NCBI GenBank assembly: GCA_050950785.1
Contig: JBMNIG010000007.1
Coordinates: 166,971-198,970 of the forward strand
Source of the DNA: Eubacteriales bacterium
GTDB lineage: Bacteria > Bacillota > Clostridia > Oscillospirales > JAAYOS01
DNA length: 32,000 nucleotides
Direction: 5' to 3'
The position numbers and the translations under genes were made by a program. This document shows, in pieces, positions 3,065 to 14,225 of the stretch (position 1 is the stretch's first letter; each line of letters begins with the position of its first letter). The notes beneath the pieces were generated by a model. It did not search any database and was not told the origin of the DNA. It worked only from the letters and a program-made list of their open reading frames with translations.

Positions 3065-3913
3065 TCATTGCATGGACGAACGAACCATCCTTAAATATTC
3101 TCGAATACCGGCTTCTTCGTCGTGACGGTATGTGAAGCCAAAGTGATCTGCTACCGCTACTGCAAGAGTGTGGAACAAGTCACACATCACATCGACCGAT
3201 GCCCAGATGTCGGTATAGTCACTGCCCGAATAAGTGGCGGCGTATTGATCGTACAATTCAGGTGAGAGATATTTTTTGAAATACTTCCCGTTCTTGCCTG
3301 TAGATATGTCAAATCCGTATTGTGTGCCGAGATAATAATTGATCATATCATGAAGTTCAGACCGAACCACATCATTGAGCATATGCATTACATAAGGTAA
3401 CTCATCCCGCGCAATTCCTTTTGCGACATTGTTTAGACACCACCAGAAATTATTGCAGCATGAGTAATAGAAAAGTGGGGAGGGAGGCTTGATATGCCAG
3501 TGTTTATCGCTTGGGGCAGGCAAAGCTGGCAAAAACCCATGACCATTGTCTTTATCCAGCAGAACTACTGCAGGCTCCCCGTCATCAATGTACTTTGTAA
3601 ACTCAAAAGAGAGGTCAATGCGAACTCCATCAGGATAAATCATCATATAGTTAAAATGACCGTCTCCGTCCGGATAACGCATAGCTTCCGGCATCTGCAT
3701 AATCAGAGGCTTGCCGAAGCCTTCATCAACCCATGCAGGATTATTATAAAATGGTGCAATGTCTTCAACAAAATAGGTGATGTCGTAATCCTGGTAGATG
3801 TCCTTCGGTGCGGATGGGTTCGCCCGCGAACCGACCAGCAGTACAGCACGAATTCGTTCGTCGGCTCGAGCCACCCCTAAAATCAGGTTCATAATTTCCT
3901 GTTCATCTCGCAT
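3065..3913 (-). CDS. aadK: aminoglycoside 6-adenylyltransferase, ANT(6)/AadK family
   Basis: MRDEQEIMNLILGVARADERIRAVLLVGSRANPSAPKDIYQDYDITYFV parallels, from memory, the B. subtilis AadK / ANT(6)-Ia N-terminus (MRSEQEMM...DERIRLV.LEGSRTN....D.FQDYDISYFV). The 282-aa length matches the family. GGGAG SD is present. Confidence 0.85.
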   Translation of the reverse strand: MRDEQEIMNLILGVARADERIRAVLLVGSRANPSAPKDIYQDYDITYFVEDIAPFYNNPAWVDEGFGKPLIMQMPEAMRYPDGDGHFNYMMIYPDGVRIDLSFEFTKYIDDGEPAVVLLDKDNGHGFLPALPAPSDKHWHIKPPSPLFYYSCCNNFWWCLNNVAKGIARDELPYVMHMLNDVVRSELHDMINYYLGTQYGFDISTGKNGKYFKKYLSPELYDQYAATYSGSDYTDIWASVDVMCDLFHTLAVAVADHFGFTYRHDEEAGIREYLRMVRSSMQ

Positions 3914-4051
3914 ACTTTCTACTCCCTTATACCGATATCTAAAATTTTTTAGACTCCATGTCCACTTAAGATGATTTTCACTTTTATTATATAGGAGACA
4001 TAATGGTATAACAATCCATGATTAATATGGAGAGGTAATCTCCCAAAACAA

Positions 4052-4085
4052 AAGACAAAGGAGTTAATGTCGTCTCCCTTGTCTT
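4052..4085 (-). terminator. hairpin terminator downstream of rsgA
   Basis: AAGACAAAGGAG (4052-4063) pairs with CTCCCTTGTCTT (4074-4085) with one mismatch. T-runs lie on both sides, so it may act in both directions. Confidence 0.5.
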
Positions 4086-4146
4086 TTTTCGTTTTATAGG
4101 TTTGAATTGCTCATGTTAAGACATTTAGGATTGCTTAAGTACCTGT

Positions 4147-5247
4147 TTACGATGAATATTCATCAAAAAAACTCCCTTTTTTCATTTGCTTACTCCATTT
4201 GGAGATCGACTTGTGCCGTGCTTTTTTCTCTTTAAGATAACCAGTTTTGTCGTCCACAAATCTATTTTCCTGCTTCTGAGCCAAGTAGTACTCCCAACGC
4301 TCTCGGGATAAAGCACCATCGTTGAGCGCCGCAAGGACCGCGCATCCCGGCTCGGTTTTATGACGGCAGTCGGTAAATCGGCATTCTGTGAATAACTCCT
4401 CTACATCTGAAAATTCCGTGCTGATTCCTTCGTCTGCGTGAAATAACCCCAGTTCACGCATCCCCGGTGTATCTATAACCATTGCACCGGATGGCAGCAT
4501 GAAAAGTTGACGATGGGTTGTGGTGTGGCGACCTCTGCTGTCACCCTCCCGGATGGAACTTACAGCCATTACTTCCTGTTTCATCAAAGCATTTAGCAAT
4601 GACGATTTGCCCACACCGGACATTCCAAGAAAAACTATTGTTTTTCTTGGCTGTAAATAGCTTTCCAACTCATCAAGTCCGAAACCCGTGTGACTGGAAA
4701 CTGCATGTACAGGTACATGTGGTGCAGCTTTTCGGATATCAGCCACGTATTGATTAGAATCTGATTGCAAATCAGCTTTAGTCAATATCACAACGGGCTG
4801 TGCACCGCTTTGCCTTGCCATCGTTAAATAACGCATGACGCGACTTACGTTGAAATCGCGATTCAAGGAAGTCAGAATAAATACGTAGTCAAAATTCGCC
4901 GCAATGGTCTGTTGCAGAACTGTCTTGACAAATCCTGCCGCATGCCCTGAAAAGTCACTACGTACAAACATAGACTTTCGAGGAAGCGTTCTAATAATTA
5001 TGCTATCTCCGCTCTGATTTAAGCTTATCAGCACAAAATCTCCTGTTGTAGGAAAACTCTCTCTGCCATCGGTGTAATAAACACTGGATTTCAATCTTCC
5101 AAAAATGGTTCCGTATTCGCATATTAGTTCATAGCGGTCCTTGTGAACGGCTGTAACTCTTGCAGGAATAACAGATGCATCGTATTGCGTCATGTCGAGA
5201 GAGTAAAGCATAGTCTCGAAAAACCCGTAGTCTTCTAATAATATCAA
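4147..5247 (-). CDS. rsgA: ribosome small subunit-dependent GTPase A
   Basis: The circularly permuted GTPase motifs are present: LTKADL (G4), GMSGVGKSSLLNAL (G1), DTPGMRE (G3), and a C-terminal zinc-finger region CRFTDCRHKTEPGCAV. I place the start at the TTG at 5247, which has GGAGGG 8 nt upstream. The track ORF extends to a GTG at 5289. Confidence 0.85.
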   Translation of the reverse strand: MILLEDYGFFETMLYSLDMTQYDASVIPARVTAVHKDRYELICEYGTIFGRLKSSVYYTDGRESFPTTGDFVLISLNQSGDSIIIRTLPRKSMFVRSDFSGHAAGFVKTVLQQTIAANFDYVFILTSLNRDFNVSRVMRYLTMARQSGAQPVVILTKADLQSDSNQYVADIRKAAPHVPVHAVSSHTGFGLDELESYLQPRKTIVFLGMSGVGKSSLLNALMKQEVMAVSSIREGDSRGRHTTTHRQLFMLPSGAMVIDTPGMRELGLFHADEGISTEFSDVEELFTECRFTDCRHKTEPGCAVLAALNDGALSRERWEYYLAQKQENRFVDDKTGYLKEKKARHKSISKWSKQMKKGSFFDEYSS

Positions 5248-5687: not shown

Positions 5688-7370
5688 GTATGTGTCAAGT
5701 AATCGTTGGGAAATATTTCTGAGTTAGAAAATTAGCATCAAATCAAGATAAGACTTATTTTTAGGATTGCAAAGCATCACCGTATCATACCGGTGCGCTA
5801 GTACTTGTATGAGCATAGTTCTTAGGAGCCGAAACGTATGTTGCTTAAGGCTCTCATTCCTAGAAGAGATTTGCTCCACTTCATGTTAGGGATTTCTGCG
5901 CGCTTGAAGCCATTGTATCCTTTGCCAACGGCCTGCTGCGTCTTAGCGGAGCTAAATCCGGTTATTGCATGAAGAGATGTGGTTGGGATTACTTCGCCTA
6001 TCACAGAGAGTGTACGTTTTAGACGACCTGTTTGCTTCAGACAGATCAAGGCAGCCAGATGATTGGCTCCATCAATGCTCCAGGAGGCACGTCTGCCCTT
6101 CATTCTGTTACCAACCATAGTAAATATATTGCTCTCCATAGCACCTAAAGGTGCACGCTGTAGGCCAGGATTTACGTCAGGTATCTCAAGTCCTCTCTCG
6201 TGGTACGGAATAAGAGCATCCTTGTTGTTGCTAAAATAGCTTAGTAGAGCTTTTCTTCTTTTTTGCTCTGTTTCATCAACTGTGCTATTTATTGAGGCTT
6301 CAATTACATCCAATAGATCATCAATCCTCTTGTTAAGAAGGAGATCCATCATAAGGCTACAAAGATCAGGGTCATTTACGTACTCTCGAATCGCTTTGTT
6401 CCGGTGAAAGATATCTAACTGGTACACTGTGTCCGCCCCCTTTTGTCCCTTTATCCACTTAGCTCCATCTCCATTGAGTATGCGCATTTCAATTTCATCT
6501 ACGTTGTAAACAGAGGCTATATGCCCTTCCTTGCGTTCAACAAACTCCGAAGCGCTTTCAAAACTTGCACAGGCAACCTTATCAGATAGGTTTCGGCGGC
6601 CACCGGCCGTCTCGCTGATACCGGTGTAAGCAATTGCAACCTTCATTTCTTTGGATTTGCCGTGCTCTTTACGGGCTTTCCCCTGCAGCGATAGCCACAC
6701 ACCATCTTGTTCTTCGAATAACACCTTGCTTTCAAGTTGGCCTGTGCCTTTATTCTGCACAGCCTTTTCTGCAAGTTGCTCTTCATATCCCAGAACCCGA
6801 CTTCCAACTGCCTGTGTAACAGACCAAGCTGTTGTATGGGATATCTTTAGACCGCTTGTCTCACTTATCTTCTCTGCCACTTCACGATAATCACTTTCGC
6901 ACGCTGCAGTTGCTATAAGGCTTGACACAAGCTCACTCATTTTTCCCGGTGCATCAATTCCTAAAGCATTATCAAGAAGGTATGTGTACTCTTTTCCTCC
7001 GCTTTCATCACGTGTCCAGTACACTCTCCGGCTATATTCAACCTCTCCCATGATTGTCTTGAGGCTTGTCTTACGTTGCCCCTCACTCTTGTATTCCTTG
7101 ACATCTCTTTGGCTAAATATCTGCTCATCTAGCTCTGTCAGTATCTCAGCCATTTGTGCACGGCCTATCGCCATACACATATCGTAAATATTTCTTTCAA
7201 TTTTTTGTAAATCTACCTTGAATTCTTTCCCGTTCTCGGTTAGAATCATAGTTGCATACACCACCTGTCTGATTTTTTCTTCAAACTAATCTTAACAAGG
7301 TTTGTATGCAAAGGGAAGGGCTTTTTTAGCTTTTCCCTTTTCTTTTTCCCAATGATTATTTTACACTAAG
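5688..7370 (-). mobile_element. complete insertion sequence, ISLre2 (UPF0236) family
   Basis: A single transposase ORF is flanked by imperfect terminal inverted repeats, GTATGTGTCAAGTAATCGTTGGGAAA (5688-5713) against the reverse complement of 7345-7370, matching at 20 of 26 positions. Perfect 9-bp direct repeats GTATAATTT lie at 5679-5687 and 7371-7379. Confidence 0.8.
5822..7264 (-). CDS. ISLre2/UPF0236 family transposase
   Basis: The 480-aa size fits the family, and the block KTIMGEVEYSRRVYW...YTYLLDNALGI...KMSELVSSLIATAACESDYREVAEKISETSGLKISHTTAWSVTQAVG resembles the UPF0236/ISLre2 N-terminal region as I remember it. The start is either the GTG at 7264 or the ATG at 7249. Confidence 0.8.
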   Translation of the reverse strand: MVYATMILTENGKEFKVDLQKIERNIYDMCMAIGRAQMAEILTELDEQIFSQRDVKEYKSEGQRKTSLKTIMGEVEYSRRVYWTRDESGGKEYTYLLDNALGIDAPGKMSELVSSLIATAACESDYREVAEKISETSGLKISHTTAWSVTQAVGSRVLGYEEQLAEKAVQNKGTGQLESKVLFEEQDGVWLSLQGKARKEHGKSKEMKVAIAYTGISETAGGRRNLSDKVACASFESASEFVERKEGHIASVYNVDEIEMRILNGDGAKWIKGQKGADTVYQLDIFHRNKAIREYVNDPDLCSLMMDLLLNKRIDDLLDVIEASINSTVDETEQKRRKALLSYFSNNKDALIPYHERGLEIPDVNPGLQRAPLGAMESNIFTMVGNRMKGRRASWSIDGANHLAALICLKQTGRLKRTLSVIGEVIPTTSLHAITGFSSAKTQQAVGKGYNGFKRAEIPNMKWSKSLLGMRALSNIRFGS

Positions 7371-9280: not shown

Positions 9281-10444
9281 ATGAGAGATTTTACTTTTCA
9301 CACTCCCACTGAGGTGATTTTCGGGCGTGACGCGGAGCTCAAAACCGGTCAGGCGGCGAAAAAATATGGCGCGAGTCGCGTATTAGTCGTATACGGAAAG
9401 GGAAGTGTTGTCAGGAGCGGTCTACTGGACAGAGTATGCAAGACCTTCGAAGAAGAGGGGCTTTCATATCAGCAGTTCGGCGGTGTTGAGCCAAATCCTC
9501 GTGTTGGTTTGACTCGCGAGGCGATAAAGACGGCTATCGATATGAAAGCAGACATGATTGTCGGAGTGGGTGGCGGAAGCGTCATTGATACGGCCAAAGC
9601 AATAGCCCATGGCGCGGCAAATCCCGATATTGACATATGGGATTTATGGCTTAGGAAGCAACCTCTGGAGAAGAGCTTGCCTGTCGGAGCCGTTGTCACA
9701 ATTCCGGCTGCCGGGAGCGAGATGAGTGATTCCTCGGTTCTGACCAACGAAGAGACGCAAGAAAAACGAGGCCTAAACACGCAACTGAACCGTCCTGCTT
9801 TTGCCATAATGAACCCAGCTCTCGCTACTACGCTTCCGATCTATCAGGTTGCATGTGGTGTAACTGATATCTATATGCACACTCTGGAAAGGTATTTTTC
9901 GCCAGTAACGGGCAATGACTTCACCGATGAAGTAGCAGAGGCACTAATGCGAGTCGTCATACGAAATGGAAGACGTGTTGTAAAGGATCCTAACGATTAT
10001 GATGCCATGAGTGAGATCATGTGGTGTTCAAGCGTATCCCATAATGGACTTACAGGCTTGGGCGGGGAGAAAGATTTTTCTGCCCATCAGTTAGGACAAG
10101 CGATAGGCGGTATTTACGACAAAGCCCACGCAGCAACACTTTCTGCTGTTTGGGGAAGCTGGGCATGGTATGTGCTTAAAACTAACCCTTCCCGATTTGA
10201 AAAATACGCCATGAACGTATGGGGAGTTGAAACAGCGGAAGAAGGTATAGAGAAAACCGTTGAATTTTTCAGTGAAATCGGAATGCCTATTACCTTAAGT
10301 GAGCTTGGGATTGGCATTTTATCCGATACGGAACTCGATGCGCTTGCCGTCAAATGCACATACGGCAAATCCAGAACAATTGGCAGCTTTAAGGTTTTGG
10401 ATTATGATGACATTTTGAAAATTTATGAAGCGGCCAATAAATAA
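9281..10444 (+). CDS. iron-containing alcohol dehydrogenase (butanol dehydrogenase-like)
   Basis: GVGGGSVIDTAKAIA NAD(P)-binding glycine motif and metal-binding His residues (HTLERY, VSHNGLTG...HQLG), with length 387 aa. GAGGTGA SD precedes the ATG at 9281. Confidence 0.9.
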   Translation: MRDFTFHTPTEVIFGRDAELKTGQAAKKYGASRVLVVYGKGSVVRSGLLDRVCKTFEEEGLSYQQFGGVEPNPRVGLTREAIKTAIDMKADMIVGVGGGSVIDTAKAIAHGAANPDIDIWDLWLRKQPLEKSLPVGAVVTIPAAGSEMSDSSVLTNEETQEKRGLNTQLNRPAFAIMNPALATTLPIYQVACGVTDIYMHTLERYFSPVTGNDFTDEVAEALMRVVIRNGRRVVKDPNDYDAMSEIMWCSSVSHNGLTGLGGEKDFSAHQLGQAIGGIYDKAHAATLSAVWGSWAWYVLKTNPSRFEKYAMNVWGVETAEEGIEKTVEFFSEIGMPITLSELGIGILSDTELDALAVKCTYGKSRTIGSFKVLDYDDILKIYEAANK

Positions 10445-10490
10445 TCCTCTCACGTGAAGGATTGACACGCCTATAATGCAATCCACAATT

Positions 10491-10524
10491 AATCAAGCGC
10501 CGGTTAAACCGGCGCTATTCCATG
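10491..10524. repeat. GC-rich hairpin repeat, copy 1 (likely a bidirectional terminator after the ADH gene)
   Basis: AATCAAGCGCCGGTTAAACCGGCGCTATTCCATG. The stem is AGCGCCGG (10496-10503) / CCGGCGCT (10509-10516). The same sequence recurs at 12193-12227 with a single 1-nt indel. Confidence 0.85.
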
Positions 10525-10723
10525 CTTATACCACATATTATTAAAGGCATTCGTAATTATCGTTTGAGTCTAAATTTTTTTGACTTTGAGGTTCGCTGAT
10601 TGTCACATACAGCGTTATTATGATACTGAACATTATTAACCACCATGCTTTGATTAACCCAAATGCGATAATGGCCATTAGACAGTACCCATACATGGCA
10701 AGCTAAGTCAAATGTATAAAGCG

Positions 10724-10861
10724 AAATCCATTGGATTGAAAAGATAAAACTGAACGGATTGATTTTATTAAATATATCAGACCAAGTTTATGAAATCTAT
10801 CGGATCGGGAAACATAAATCTATCGGATTCGAGTTGTAAAATCTATCGGATTGGGATACAA
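10724..10861 (+). repeat. array of six phased 23-bp direct-repeat units (core AAATCTATCGGAT)
   Basis: Units start at 10724, 10747, 10770, 10793, 10816 and 10839. The three promoter-proximal units share a perfect 13-mer AAATCTATCGGAT. The three distal units are progressively degenerate: aaatccattggat, aaactgaacggat, aaatatatcagac. Confidence 0.85.
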
Positions 10862-10881
10862 TTCAAGTGGGGGTGAACTGT

Positions 10882-12159
10882 ATGGATATGCGAAAATATC
10901 GTCCTCGTATCATAGATAAGCGTATTAATAAATATTTATCCACATTTGGTGCTATATGTATTGAAGGGCCAAAATGGTGTGGAAAGACATGGACATCGTT
11001 TTTTCACAGTAAAAGTACTATATTTCTAGGTGACCCTGCAGGGAATTTCCAAAATAGGGAGCTGGCAAGGCTATCTCCGAGTTTGGTGCTGGAGGGCGAA
11101 ACACCTCGTTTAGTTGACGAATGGCAGGAGGTCCCGCAACTTTGGGATGCCGTTCGACACAAGGTTGATCAGACAACCGATAAAGGACTTTTCATCCTGA
11201 CAGGTTCCGCAACCCCAAATCATAAGGGTATCCTTCACAGCGGAGCGGGGCGGATTGCCAGGTTGCGTATGCGTACGATGTCCCTATACGAATCAGGCGA
11301 TTCCTCCGGTAAGGTTTCTTTGCAATCGCTGTGTAATGGCAAGATGGAACCTGCGCTGACCGGAGAGGTGGATTTAAAAAGACTCATTGAGCTTATCGTA
11401 CGCGGTGGATGGCCTGGCAGTCTTGATCTGCCGATTGATGAGGCTGCGCTTTTACCATCTGAATATTTGAATGCTGTTATTGAAGATGACGTGTACCGAA
11501 TAGATGGTATCAAGCGGGATACGCAAAAAATGTGGCTGCTATTGCGATCCCTTGCACGAAATGAAAGTACGACCGCTACTAATAAAACCTTGAAAAATGA
11601 TATAAAGGCTGTCGATGATGAGGACATCAATGTTGAAACAGTCGCTTCTTATCTCGATATTTTCAAACGACTATTTCTCATAGACAACCAGCCGCCATTT
11701 TCCGCTAATATCCGCTCATCTGTTAGAATAAAGCAAGCTGAAAAGCGCCATTTCTCCGACCCGTCTCTTGCCTGCGCATTGCTTAAGGTCACTCCTGAAA
11801 GTCTACTTAACGACCTTGAAACCCTTGGGTTATTATTTGAGGCCCTGTGCGAAAGAGACTTGAGAATTTACGCGGAATCTTTTGGTGGTCAGTTATATCA
11901 TTATCAAGATTACCGTAACCGCGAAATCGATGCTATTGTTAGTCTGCCGGATGGACGCTGGTGTGCTTTTGAGATAAAACTTGGGGCAAATCAGATTGAC
12001 GAGGCTGCTTATAACCTTATAAAGATTCGGGATGAACTGGCAAAGGAGAAAAATGCTGTTTCACCGTCAGTATTGTGCGTCATTTGTGGATTGTCAAACG
12101 CCGCATATCAACGTGATGATGGCGTTTATGTCGTACCACTGACAGCGCTCAAGGATTGA
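10882..12159 (+). CDS. AAA+ ATPase (AAA_14-type) with a DUF4143 / PD-(D/E)xK-like C-terminal domain
   Basis: Walker A GPKWCGKT, Walker B-like RLVDEWQEVP, and a C-terminal REIDAIV...CAFEIK (D...ExK) typical of the DUF4143 ATPase family. GGGGGTGA SD precedes the ATG at 10882. Confidence 0.85.
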   Translation: MDMRKYRPRIIDKRINKYLSTFGAICIEGPKWCGKTWTSFFHSKSTIFLGDPAGNFQNRELARLSPSLVLEGETPRLVDEWQEVPQLWDAVRHKVDQTTDKGLFILTGSATPNHKGILHSGAGRIARLRMRTMSLYESGDSSGKVSLQSLCNGKMEPALTGEVDLKRLIELIVRGGWPGSLDLPIDEAALLPSEYLNAVIEDDVYRIDGIKRDTQKMWLLLRSLARNESTTATNKTLKNDIKAVDDEDINVETVASYLDIFKRLFLIDNQPPFSANIRSSVRIKQAEKRHFSDPSLACALLKVTPESLLNDLETLGLLFEALCERDLRIYAESFGGQLYHYQDYRNREIDAIVSLPDGRWCAFEIKLGANQIDEAAYNLIKIRDELAKEKNAVSPSVLCVICGLSNAAYQRDDGVYVVPLTALKD

Positions 12160-12192
12160 GAGTTATATACGAATAATCCACGCAGTTTAATA

Positions 12193-12227
12193 AATCAAGC
12201 GCCGGTTAAACCGGCGCTTATTCCATG
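12193..12227. repeat. GC-rich hairpin repeat, copy 2 (between the ATPase and MetRS-family gene ends)
   Basis: AATCAAGCGCCGGTTAAACCGGCGCTTATTCCATG matches copy 1 apart from a single 1-nt indel (34 of 34 bases of copy 1 match). An upstream AATCCAC is also shared (10480-10486 / 12174-12180). Confidence 0.85.
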
Positions 12228-12233
12228 TTCAAC

Positions 12234-14225
12234 TTACATTAGCTGGCTTTCGTGTTTTGCGAAAAAGTCGACTCGCGGTTCCAAAAACTTAAGGTTATGC
12301 TCGGACGGGTTTTCAATAAAATCATATATCGAGTCAAAGATCCTATCCCAACTCCAAAAATCTTCACTCAGATTCAAATAGTCCAGTATCATTTCAGTCC
12401 CCTCCGGAGCAACCGGATGCATCAAAACAGCAGCCGTTCTTACCATATGGAAGGTATCTATTATCGTCTGAGCCCTTAAGTCATTATCATCTTCTTTGTC
12501 TGCATCTCGGATCATCTTTACCCAGTACTTATTCATGCCTCGGATATAAGTGTCCATCAGACTCATCATCAGGTGAAAATCACACTTATACATCAACTTC
12601 TCATATTCCAGGATCGTACTCTTCGCCTCGGTCAATACCTCTTCGCTAATTTTCCCCACAGGAAGCTTTCCGTCGAAGTATTTCTGCACAGTGTAAAAGC
12701 AGGATCTTACAACCCTATTGAATACGTTTGTTAAGAGGTTTCCCTCTTTGAGGACAGGATCACTGTCTTTTTCGCCAGCCTTTGGATTGAATGGTTTCGG
12801 CTGAAAGCTTACACTTCTTATTCCAAGGCCAAGACCAAGAAAGTGTGCCCTCAACTGTTCCGGCGTGTAGTGTTCAAGAAGCTCCCGAGCTGTAGGGGGC
12901 TTGATTTTGCCGCTGCTACTGGCTTTCTTGTTCAAAAATAGCAGATGATTGTTAACTATCAGATGCGGTAATTGCATTTCACCTTCGGGCGGATCAGCTG
13001 TTGGTTGCTTGCCCTGCAATCCCATGAACATAGCCATTTCGGCAGGTCCGTAGAAATAGACATTGTCTTCGCCTATAAACTGGAACACCCCGGCATCCTT
13101 CGAGCACCACCAATCCTTCCAATCGTCGTCATCCTTGCCATTCATCTCAAGGAAGCATTTTGTAAAAGAAATCGGTGCCCACAGCGATTCAGGCCATACC
13201 CACACGGTTAGACCGTCAAGATCTTCGAGAACCGGAGCAGGAACTCCCCACTCTATATTACCTGTCAGTCTGAATGGGACAAGCGTTTTACCTGTTCTGA
13301 ATCTTATGGAATTATCAGCGAGGATTTGACAGGCTTTTTCCCTGTCTTCCAATGTCTCAAACACCAAAACAGCGGAGGGCTTTCTGTCTTCGACCTTGCA
13401 TTCAAACCTAGGGAGCTGACTTCTTAAGTCATCAAGGGACTCGAGTAGATCCTTCTTGATATATATCACGGGAGGCTCAAGAAATTCCTTGATGCTACTT
13501 ATTGCAAAATCTCTAATAATCCCATTCCCCTCGGCTTTATCGATCCACTTTTTCAGAAGAGAGTAGAACTCATCAAGTTTGAAGTACCAGTTAGTTGCAT
13601 CCTTCATGATAGGCTTTTTGCCCGAAAGTAGACTTTTTGGGTTAATGAGATCGGATGGCATGTATTGGTGGCCAAGGGAGCATTCATCGGCATATGCTTT
13701 CTCGGATGAGCATCCGTCGATAGGGCACTGACCTACAACCTGACGGCCGTTGAGATATACGTCGAACTCGGTATCATAGAACTGGGATGTGGTCATCTTT
13801 CGTAGATGGCCGTTTTTATACAGTTCAGTAATGATCTCCAAAGTTAGCTCCTTGTGGATTTCAGATGCCCTTTCCAGAGCCGATGCAGCAAACAAGTTGA
13901 GACTGATGCCGTACTTATCAAGCACTTCTTTTTGCAGTTCATGATTCATTTGCACAAAATCGGTTATTGTACCATCAAACTCGCCTTTTTCAACGAGTTG
14001 TCTATAGTTTTCCAATATAGGTGAGCCATAACAGTCAGTTCCTGAAACAAATATCACGTTATCCTTTCCGATCCTGTCGCGGAGAAAACGCGCATAGGTA
14101 TCCGCATGTACAAAAACGCCCCCGACATGGCCCAGATGGAGCTCCTTGTTTCCGTACGGCATTCCTGCGGTAACGATTGCGCGCTTTGGGAATCTCGGTC
14201 GCTCTACGTTATTTACATTACTCAT
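12234..14225 (-). CDS. metG: methionine--tRNA ligase family protein (class I aaRS, E. coli-type MetRS fold, divergent KMSKS)
   Basis: PYGNKELHLGHVGG (HIGH), a zinc-knuckle region CPIDGCSSEKAYADECSLGH, FIGEDNVYFY and a helical anticodon-domain pattern ...LMHPVAPEGTEMILDYLNL align block by block with E. coli MetRS as I remember it. The KMSKS position reads KASSS. GGAGG SD is present, and the gene is preceded by a T-box leader. Confidence 0.75.
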   Translation of the reverse strand: MSNVNNVERPRFPKRAIVTAGMPYGNKELHLGHVGGVFVHADTYARFLRDRIGKDNVIFVSGTDCYGSPILENYRQLVEKGEFDGTITDFVQMNHELQKEVLDKYGISLNLFAASALERASEIHKELTLEIITELYKNGHLRKMTTSQFYDTEFDVYLNGRQVVGQCPIDGCSSEKAYADECSLGHQYMPSDLINPKSLLSGKKPIMKDATNWYFKLDEFYSLLKKWIDKAEGNGIIRDFAISSIKEFLEPPVIYIKKDLLESLDDLRSQLPRFECKVEDRKPSAVLVFETLEDREKACQILADNSIRFRTGKTLVPFRLTGNIEWGVPAPVLEDLDGLTVWVWPESLWAPISFTKCFLEMNGKDDDDWKDWWCSKDAGVFQFIGEDNVYFYGPAEMAMFMGLQGKQPTADPPEGEMQLPHLIVNNHLLFLNKKASSSGKIKPPTARELLEHYTPEQLRAHFLGLGLGIRSVSFQPKPFNPKAGEKDSDPVLKEGNLLTNVFNRVVRSCFYTVQKYFDGKLPVGKISEEVLTEAKSTILEYEKLMYKCDFHLMMSLMDTYIRGMNKYWVKMIRDADKEDDNDLRAQTIIDTFHMVRTAAVLMHPVAPEGTEMILDYLNLSEDFWSWDRIFDSIYDFIENPSEHNLKFLEPRVDFFAKHESQLM

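Follow-up and report, generated by a model that had tools for sequence, protein, structure and literature searches.

Gene and repeat array at the locus

The DNA analysed here (32,000 nt; hereafter the window) has an ordinary chromosomal, Clostridia-type gene content, with genes for an ISLre2-family transposase, flavodoxin-like, MazG-like and HD proteins, an iron alcohol dehydrogenase (ADH) and a convergently transcribed methionyl-tRNA synthetase (MetRS). Among these lies a gene for a putative ATPase-nuclease, with the following features:

10882–12159, + strand: AAA_14 + DUF4143 ATPase-nuclease gene (425 aa, PADLOC PDC-S01), assigned from Pfam and PADLOC matches, residue conservation and a structural model
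within 10882–12159, + strand: Walker A residues G34/K35, Walker B residues D79/E80, and R124
within 10882–12159, + strand: PD-(D/E)xK residues E320, D350, E364 and K366
11581–11670, + strand: predicted helix-turn-helix, codons 234–263 (helix 234–244, turn, helix 251–263), from the model and covariation

The preliminary description placed this gene in the DUF4143 family of ATPases, and the call was right: the product matches both AAA_14 and DUF4143, and it matches PADLOC model PDLC04790 over its full length (E 5e-61), making it a member of PDC-S01. The DUF4143/COG1373 ATPases (PDC-S01) are reported to rank fourth in frequency among candidate prokaryotic defence systems, with a mechanism that is unexplained (PMC12988326, PMC13356809); PDC-S01 is an abundant, unvalidated single-gene candidate in which an ATPase is fused to a PD-(D/E)xK domain (PMC12988326). 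In the literature on DUF4143, PF13635, COG1373, PDC-S01 and AAA_14, we found no report of upstream repeats, a DNA-binding module or autoregulation for the family.

Immediately upstream of the gene, six head-to-tail units could be read directly from the sequence, with starts at 10724, 10747, 10770, 10793, 10816 and 10839 and a pitch of exactly 23 bp. The array ends at 10861, leaving a gap of 20 nt to the ATG at 10882. Its units are as follows:

10724–10746, + strand: unit 1, the most distal; AAATCCATTGGAT plus a 10-nt linker, two mismatches to the core
10747–10769, + strand: unit 2; AAACTGAACGGAT plus linker, degenerate, four mismatches
10770–10792, + strand: unit 3; AAATATATCAGAC plus linker, degenerate, three mismatches
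10793–10815, + strand: unit 4; exact AAATCTATCGGAT plus linker CGGGAAACAT
10816–10838, + strand: unit 5; exact core, with a linker (TCGAGTTGTA) that provides most of the predicted -35 hexamer
10839–10861, + strand: unit 6, promoter-proximal; exact core, with the 15-bp site occupying the predicted -35/-10 spacer

The phased array, the identical 13-mer in the three units nearest the gene, the decay of the three distal units and the distance to the start codon all agree with the preliminary description. The exact 13-mer AAATCTATCGGAT occurs at only three places in the 32-kb window, all of them within the array. As the odds of three exact 13-mers at a fixed offset are approximately 32000 x 4^-26, their occurrence by chance is not plausible. 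The array was detectable as a 46-nt repeat pair in a repeat search of the window; Tandem Repeats Finder (score 30) did not report it, on account of the variation in the 8–10-nt linkers.

The palindrome AATCCA-T-TGGATT described earlier in unit 1 is real. It arises from two substitutions and was not found in the distal units of related arrays, and we have therefore treated it as incidental. To define the anatomy of the unit, we calculated information content over 85 units from 17 arrays that carry the window's core (same-core arrays). Unit positions 1–15 (AAATCTATCGGATTG) held 1.0–2.0 bits each and positions 16–23 less than 0.8 bits; because the information is concentrated in positions 1–15, the unit is best described as a 15-bp site followed by an 8-bp linker. 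A CRISPR array was considered and rejected, given a 15-bp site with a linker of only 8 bp, the lack of nearby cas genes and the position of the array upstream of a promoter. A search of positions 10300–11000 against Rfam returned no credible RNA family, the sole match being a sub-threshold sroD hit on a terminator hairpin.

Overlap of the array with a predicted promoter

A consensus scan of the region placed a promoter across the gene-proximal end of the array, followed by a ribosome-binding site:

10834–10839, + strand: predicted -35 hexamer TTGTAA, in the same register in 16 of 17 same-core arrays
10857–10862, + strand: predicted -10 hexamer TACAAT, after a 17-bp spacer
10868–10875, + strand: ribosome-binding site GGGGGTGA, read from the sequence, preceding the ATG at 10882

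The promoter hexamers are consensus matches. In 16 of the 17 same-core arrays the register is invariant, with the proximal unit falling exactly within the 17-bp spacer of TTGnnA-N17-TAnnnT and the -35 hexamer beginning 5 nt ahead of this unit. The sites therefore overlap the core promoter of the adjoining gene, as expected of an operator, at the consensus level of the promoter call. Public RNA data from two biogas metatranscriptomes yielded a few short contigs over the ATPase ORF with weak coverage, and a transcript start was not obtained from these contigs.

Linkage of the array to the ATPase gene

The preliminary description proposed that the co-occurrence of 13-mer arrays with DUF4143 ATPase genes be checked across genomes. 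We searched a set of genomes, one per species, for pairs of the 13-mer spaced 23 bp apart and retrieved 14 loci, including representatives of Lachnospiraceae, Oscillospiraceae, Faecalibacterium, Dysosmobacter, Senimuribacter and other Clostridia. These 14 loci were chosen via the repeat itself (the metagenome and plasmid loci described below were not), and all 14 matches lie directly upstream of an orthologue with 69–76 % protein identity. Each locus has three to seven units, and every unit-to-unit distance is 23 bp.

The DNA beyond the arrays is unrelated from one of the 14 loci to the next. When the window was compared with same-core loci, nucleotide similarity began at the array (at most -175) and ended at the stop codon (at most +8). 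Within these limits the ORF is only 65–70 % identical at the DNA level while the core 13-mers are identical, indicating that the core is more constrained than the coding sequence. No family of flanking genes was present in more than 6 of 95 loci, and the module therefore consists of a single gene and its own array.

We also assembled a gene-first sample of 80 metagenome loci, picked by protein similarity alone (43–78 % identity), and searched the 250 bp upstream of each gene for 8-mers (at most one mismatch) recurring at lags of 10–40. The best lag was exactly 23, with a clear score, in 59 of the 77 usable loci; the in-gene control returned one locus, at lag 27. Pooling all the loci gave 112 distinct upstream regions, and the best lag was 23 in 77 regions, 22 in six and another value in six, and 23 regions were below threshold (controls: in-gene, 2/112; shuffled sequences, 28/560 over all lags, one of them at 23). 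Several of the sub-threshold loci have one to three units by eye, including a lone unit inside the promoter spacer. The preliminary description had held that a 13-mer dispersed independently of these genes, or a periodicity that was not conserved at orthologous loci, would speak against its reading; we found neither.

A long array is not obligatory, as the closest relatives of the window protein (76–78 % identity, L026–L030) have only one to three weak units, and single examples from Thermus, Aliarcobacter, Runella and Emticicia, part of a small sample of deep clades, have no array. Two loci have unusual arrangements. A Eubacteriales MAG (L009, -270 to the ATG) carries five perfect units followed by approximately 230 bp of extra sequence before the start codon, an apparent insertion. 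Faecalibacterium sp. UBA7177 (L010) carries two same-core arrays (-436 to -344 and -90 to -22) ahead of one ATPase gene, with a run of Ns between them; the duplication may be real or may stem from assembly or scaffolding. Only five loci came from viral contigs, which we scanned with the window protein plus three distant homologues.

A constant period with a variable core

Stacking the arrays by unit revealed three to eight units per locus and highly divergent cores, with the 23-bp period held throughout: the 13–15-bp core varies by subfamily and the period is constant. Examples of cores from relatives are AAATCTCACTGAATG, AAACTGCTGAATGA and GAAAATGGGTGGATGA; others (GCCAAACTCGGAAGTAAAAC, GCCAAGTTCCCAAACGAAAAC and GCCAAAGTTCATAGTGAAAA) are accompanied by Bacteroidota-type promoter motifs.

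The same pitch was observed in distant plasmid-borne relatives from Collinsella (44 % identity; three units of AAATCTGGTTAA), Bacteroides uniformis (39 %; six units) and Mycobacterium riyadhense (28 %; four units of GTGGAATCAG). An alphaproteobacterial clade (23–27 % identity) has three to five units of (A)CTTTCAATTGGTCG with a 22-bp period; both this clade and the Mycobacterium case belong to the small deep-clade sample. In the alphaproteobacterial arrays a TTGAC -35 element lies in a linker, and the last unit falls between the -10 element and the start codon. On the Collinsella aerofaciens plasmid (L015), a gene for a small helix-turn-helix regulator (2138–2359) ends just before the array of the homologue; this neighbour is not conserved elsewhere.

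One contig (L080) encodes two tandem DUF4143 ATPase paralogues, each with its own 23-bp array, and the cores of the two differ (GGCTAACAA vs CGATTGTGYCCAGTGA). The array of the second paralogue occupies approximately 1560–1640 and its gene starts at about 1642.

A predicted DNA-binding module in the ATPase

The catalytic residues of both the nuclease and the ATPase are invariant. The AlphaFold2 model (pLDDT 90, pTM 0.91) comprises an AAA+ core (residues 1 to about 135), a helical lid, a module of three helices and a beta-hairpin, and a C-terminal alpha/beta domain bearing the invariant PD-(D/E)xK residues E320, D350, E364 and K366. The helices of the three-helix module span residues 214–226, 234–244 and 251–263, and strands follow at 267–272.

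The top Foldseek matches were the archaeal AAA+ ATPases SSO1545 and PABY2304, followed by Orc1/Cdc6 bound to origin DNA, clamp loaders, ORC and MalT. For 2fna, 2qen and 2qby the match probability was 0.99–1.0, with low whole-chain TM-scores (0.2–0.5). From the model and these low-scoring whole-chain matches, the module around residues 234–263 is predicted to be winged-helix-like. A Pfam scan of residues 205–298 alone returned DUF4143 and no named helix-turn-helix family. PDB sequence searches with the single sequence and with a profile found no solved relative, and among Pfam families the window protein matches AAA_14 and DUF4143, not Cdc6/Orc1.

The resemblance to Orc1/Cdc6 bears on the suggestion, also made in the preliminary description, that the repeats are plasmid or phage iterons or a vestigial origin. 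The unit length and phasing are iteron-like (six direct repeats at exactly 23 bp), the fold of the protein resembles that of Orc1/Cdc6 initiators, and archaeal orc1 genes commonly adjoin their own binding elements. Even so, we regard it as extremely unlikely that the array belongs to a plasmid or phage origin, live or vestigial, at which the AAA+ protein acts as initiator, since the array lies at a chromosomal site between the ADH and MetRS genes, in a housekeeping context, and consistently overlaps the promoter of the gene. No Rep family was detected among window ORFs of at least 110 aa. DnaA-box near-matches in the window are at chance level (12 vs 9.3 expected) and form no cluster, and the only AT-rich stretch is that of the degenerate distal units (27 % GC), with no separate unwinding element. 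The occurrence of relatives in many chromosomal contexts and as adjacent paralogues is likewise hard to square with origins. A single perfect DnaA-box consensus (TTATCCACA, 10936–10944) lies isolated inside the ATPase ORF.

Covariation of the repeat core with the helix-turn-helix

Column by column, we set 17 proteins encoded beside the same core, sharing 69–76 % identity with the window protein, against 30 that are just as close (61–78 %) and are encoded beside other cores. Only one of the 425 columns discriminated the two sets, namely E252, where the third helix makes its first turn. In a second comparison, identity outside the module was matched across 563 protein pairs (69.4 % vs 68.4 %), and the columns that best separated same-core from different-core pairs were 252, 247 and 251. 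The mean effect was 0.108 in residues 234–263 and 0.000–0.016 in every other region. As the pairs share ancestry and are not independent, they were matched for identity and the array labels permuted, and the observed value was reached in none of 300 permutations. With the covariation confined to residues 234–263 and a permutation result of 0/300, the repeat core therefore appears to co-evolve specifically with the helix-turn-helix of the protein encoded by the adjoining gene.

This pattern is difficult to reconcile with the units being sites for a host transcription factor that regulates the ATPase gene, a reading to which we give little credence. Phased direct repeats over promoters are typical of response regulators and SARP/OmpR-type factors, which lends this reading some appeal, as does the helix-turn-helix regulator gene just upstream of the array on the Collinsella plasmid. 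A host factor would not be expected to leave cores that differ among modules of related hosts, and even between adjacent paralogues on one contig, while an identical core recurs in different families of Clostridia, only beside the ATPase gene. Nor is there a conserved neighbouring gene to encode such a factor, and the core tracks the helix-turn-helix of the ATPase and no other part of the protein.

Flanking duplications and possible mobility of the module

The window module is bracketed by a direct repeat of roughly 100 bp:

10456–10554, + strand: left copy, including a terminator hairpin (AAGCGCCGGTTAAACCGGCGCTT, 10495–10516)
12150–12253, + strand: right copy, including the last 9 nt of the ATPase ORF (AAGGATTGA), a near-identical hairpin (12198–12219) and the 3′ end of the convergent MetRS gene

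This repeat has the appearance of a duplication that arose on insertion of the module. Comparable flanking direct repeats of 28–190 bp were present at 9 of 75 other loci (the metagenome loci L070, L043, L052, L076, L089, L082, L094, L078 and L033), where the downstream copy mostly starts 4–36 nt past the stop codon and the upstream copy usually ends within approximately 130–220 bp of the start codon. The longest, at L070 (190 bp), duplicates the 3′ end of a convergent neighbouring gene; some of the others are hairpins or dispersed intergenic repeats. We rejected the idea that the flanking repeats are relics of tandem ATPase genes, because no second ATPase fragment lies upstream in those loci. 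Together, these duplications hint that the module was inserted as a unit.

Whether the array itself is the moving part is another matter. The preliminary description suggested a recombination site of a small mobile module, and the portion of this that stands is that the array and gene behave as a self-contained module in unrelated contexts; as a role for the array, it fails for want of repeat copies at the other end of the gene. We consider a transposon-end-like or recombination site that moves the single-gene module to be very unlikely. The flanking duplications of host DNA at the window and the nine other loci would fit such a site, as would the frequent ending of the upstream copy near the distal end of the array, the start of the downstream copy just past the stop codon and the presence of a nuclease domain in the protein. 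On the other hand, no further match to the repeat, in either orientation, was present around the stop codon or past it. Several of the flanking repeats are terminator hairpins or repeats dispersed through intergenic DNA, and mobility of this kind gives no role to the fixed register between array and promoter. An empty site was not found either: in a search of the same species via the ADH protein, every contig that continued past the ADH gene, among the 10 places listed, had at least the start of the module.

The surroundings differ between conspecific strains. In one contig (L114, about 3170–5057), the order of ADH gene and array is that of the window; gene calling gave no intact ATPase gene there, and approximately 260 bp into the expected ATPase ORF is the start of an IS66-family transposase gene that runs on the opposite strand. 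This looks like the disruption of the module by an insertion sequence in one strain. A UPF0236 (ISLre2-family) transposase gene (5822–7264, - strand) lies approximately 3.5 kb upstream of the window module, and in contig L113 a Transposase_mut-family gene occupies about the corresponding place, indicating that the neighbourhood varies by strain.

Two further window ORFs were noted. A 51-aa ORF (10541–10696, - strand) lies between the left flanking repeat and the array, in a region called as a gene in conspecific contig L122; it has no similarity to the MetRS C-terminus. An ORF at 3065–3913 (- strand) resembles ANT(6) aminoglycoside 6-adenylyltransferases (E 1e-70) and scores 238 bits against a curated cut-off of 420, consistent with a distant member of the ANT(6) family rather than a called resistance gene.

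A proposed private operator for the ATPase gene

We propose that the array is probably a private operator of the gene directly 3′ of it, at which protomers of the ATPase would bind the units and cooperatively repress their own promoter. The preliminary description had raised a cooperative operator, or a binding site for the encoded protein, as one option, and this option is well supported by the linkage, the fixed period, the promoter overlap and the covariation with the helix-turn-helix. What we observe directly is the phased array, linked exclusively to the gene, conserved more strongly than the coding DNA and overlapping the consensus promoter, together with the single-gene nature of the module and the restriction of covariation to the helix-turn-helix; from these observations we infer that the protein binds, with one protomer on each unit and in an ATP-dependent manner, and that the outcome is repression and not activation.

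In the proposed mechanism, one AAA+/winged-helix/PD-(D/E)xK protomer would occupy each 23-bp unit through its own helix-turn-helix, with residues 247, 251 and 252 (the turn and the start of the recognition helix) reading the variable part of the site. Arranged head to tail at a fixed pitch, the sites would build a polar, cooperative oligomer, presumably joined by the AAA+ modules as in Orc1/Cdc6, DnaA and MalT. With the proximal protomer lodged between the -35 and -10 hexamers, in their 17-bp spacer, and the next one immediately 5′ of the -35 hexamer, RNA polymerase would be expected to be excluded. Occupied sites would consequently place a potentially toxic ATPase-nuclease under steep negative autoregulation. 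The array may instead serve to activate the ATPase gene.

A different function, in place of or besides that of an operator, is that the array is an assembly or tethering platform, on which an inactive DNA-bound oligomer is stored until phage infection, a shift in nucleotide state or some other trigger frees or activates it; here, the 23-bp pitch would reflect the geometry of the oligomer. We consider this unlikely. The evidence that the protein reads its own array applies equally to a platform, and some arrays extend to seven or eight perfect units and approximately 200 bp upstream (L105, L097 and L065), beyond what the occlusion of one promoter needs. The conservation of the period across phyla, the invariance of the nuclease and ATPase catalytic residues and the flagging of the family as a defence candidate, PDC-S01 (PMC12988326), are also compatible with storage. 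Against this, the defence role of PDC-S01 is only that of an unvalidated candidate (PMC12988326), the window locus lies outside any obvious defence island, and transcriptional control offers a simpler explanation of why the last unit always lies in the core promoter.

The two functions could be combined in a broader and distinctly speculative scheme. Every module of the family would have a private DNA address, an array of 23- or 22-bp period that co-evolves with approximately three residues of the recognition helix and so prevents cross-talk between paralogues. The same address would hold the AAA+ oligomer inactive, and its release would couple a signal (e.g. phage attack) to both derepression and nuclease activation. 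If this were true, the pairs of helix-turn-helix and core would amount to a natural, readable code of protein–DNA recognition with dozens of orthogonal specificities.

Returning to the private operator, the predicted helix-turn-helix and the self-encoded promoter array that it would read represent a first concrete molecular feature for the DUF4143/PDC-S01 family. Judged from sequence comparison and one predicted structure, the array appears to be a family-wide cis-element of AAA_14/DUF4143 ATPase-nucleases and would belong with the autoregulatory direct-repeat operators. Its pitch is conserved from Firmicutes to Bacteroidota and Actinomycetota and is 22 bp in Alphaproteobacteria, suggesting that these ATPase-nucleases are sequence-specific DNA binders under tight self-control. 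Residues 247, 251 and 252 are candidate specificity determinants, and the family may offer a large natural set of orthogonal repressor/operator pairs. For annotation, a 22–23-bp lag upstream of the gene could serve as a signature of functional modules.

Comparison with known systems

The array is reminiscent of several systems in which a protein acts on repeated sites. One of these is the iterons read by Rep proteins (RepA of pPS10, RepE of F and TrfA of RK2), which are direct repeats of approximately 17–22 bp phased at about two helical turns, with a winged-helix reader that is encoded beside them and also controls its own promoter, as predicted for the ATPase. Rep proteins autorepress via a separate inverted repeat, whereas here it is the array itself that overlaps the promoter. 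The locus also differs in being chromosomal, in having no Rep-family protein or origin features and in its putative binder, an AAA+ ATPase fused to a nuclease.

Archaeal Orc1/Cdc6 proteins share the order of an AAA+ domain followed by a winged helix (2qby was among the best fold matches; in the window protein this order is modelled) and the placement of the gene beside its own repeated binding elements, which are putative in our case. Origin recognition boxes are typically inverted around an unwinding element; the arrays described here have three to eight head-to-tail units at a fixed 23-bp pitch, with no origin signature. Orc1 also lacks a C-terminal PD-(D/E)xK domain.

ParR/parC and the omega-type repressors rely on arrays of short direct repeats around a promoter, which a protein from the same operon occupies cooperatively, leading to the autorepression that we also propose here. 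Their units are 7–11 bp and their binders are small ribbon-helix-helix dimers, in contrast to the 23-bp unit and the predicted 48-kDa AAA+ nuclease of this locus, which has no partition genes.

STAND/SARP-type regulators such as MalT and AfsR likewise combine an NTPase with a DNA-binding domain and oligomerize on direct repeats over the -35 element, and MalT (8bob) was among the fold matches. MalT/AfsR-type proteins activate other operons and use MalT boxes or heptamers phased at 11 or 22 bp, whereas the sites described here lie within the spacer of the ATPase gene's own promoter, which is apparently self-sufficient.

Finally, in its domain composition the window protein conforms to PDC-S01 (PADLOC; DUF4143, COG1373), being an ATPase with a PD-(D/E)xK domain as described for that candidate system (PMC12988326).
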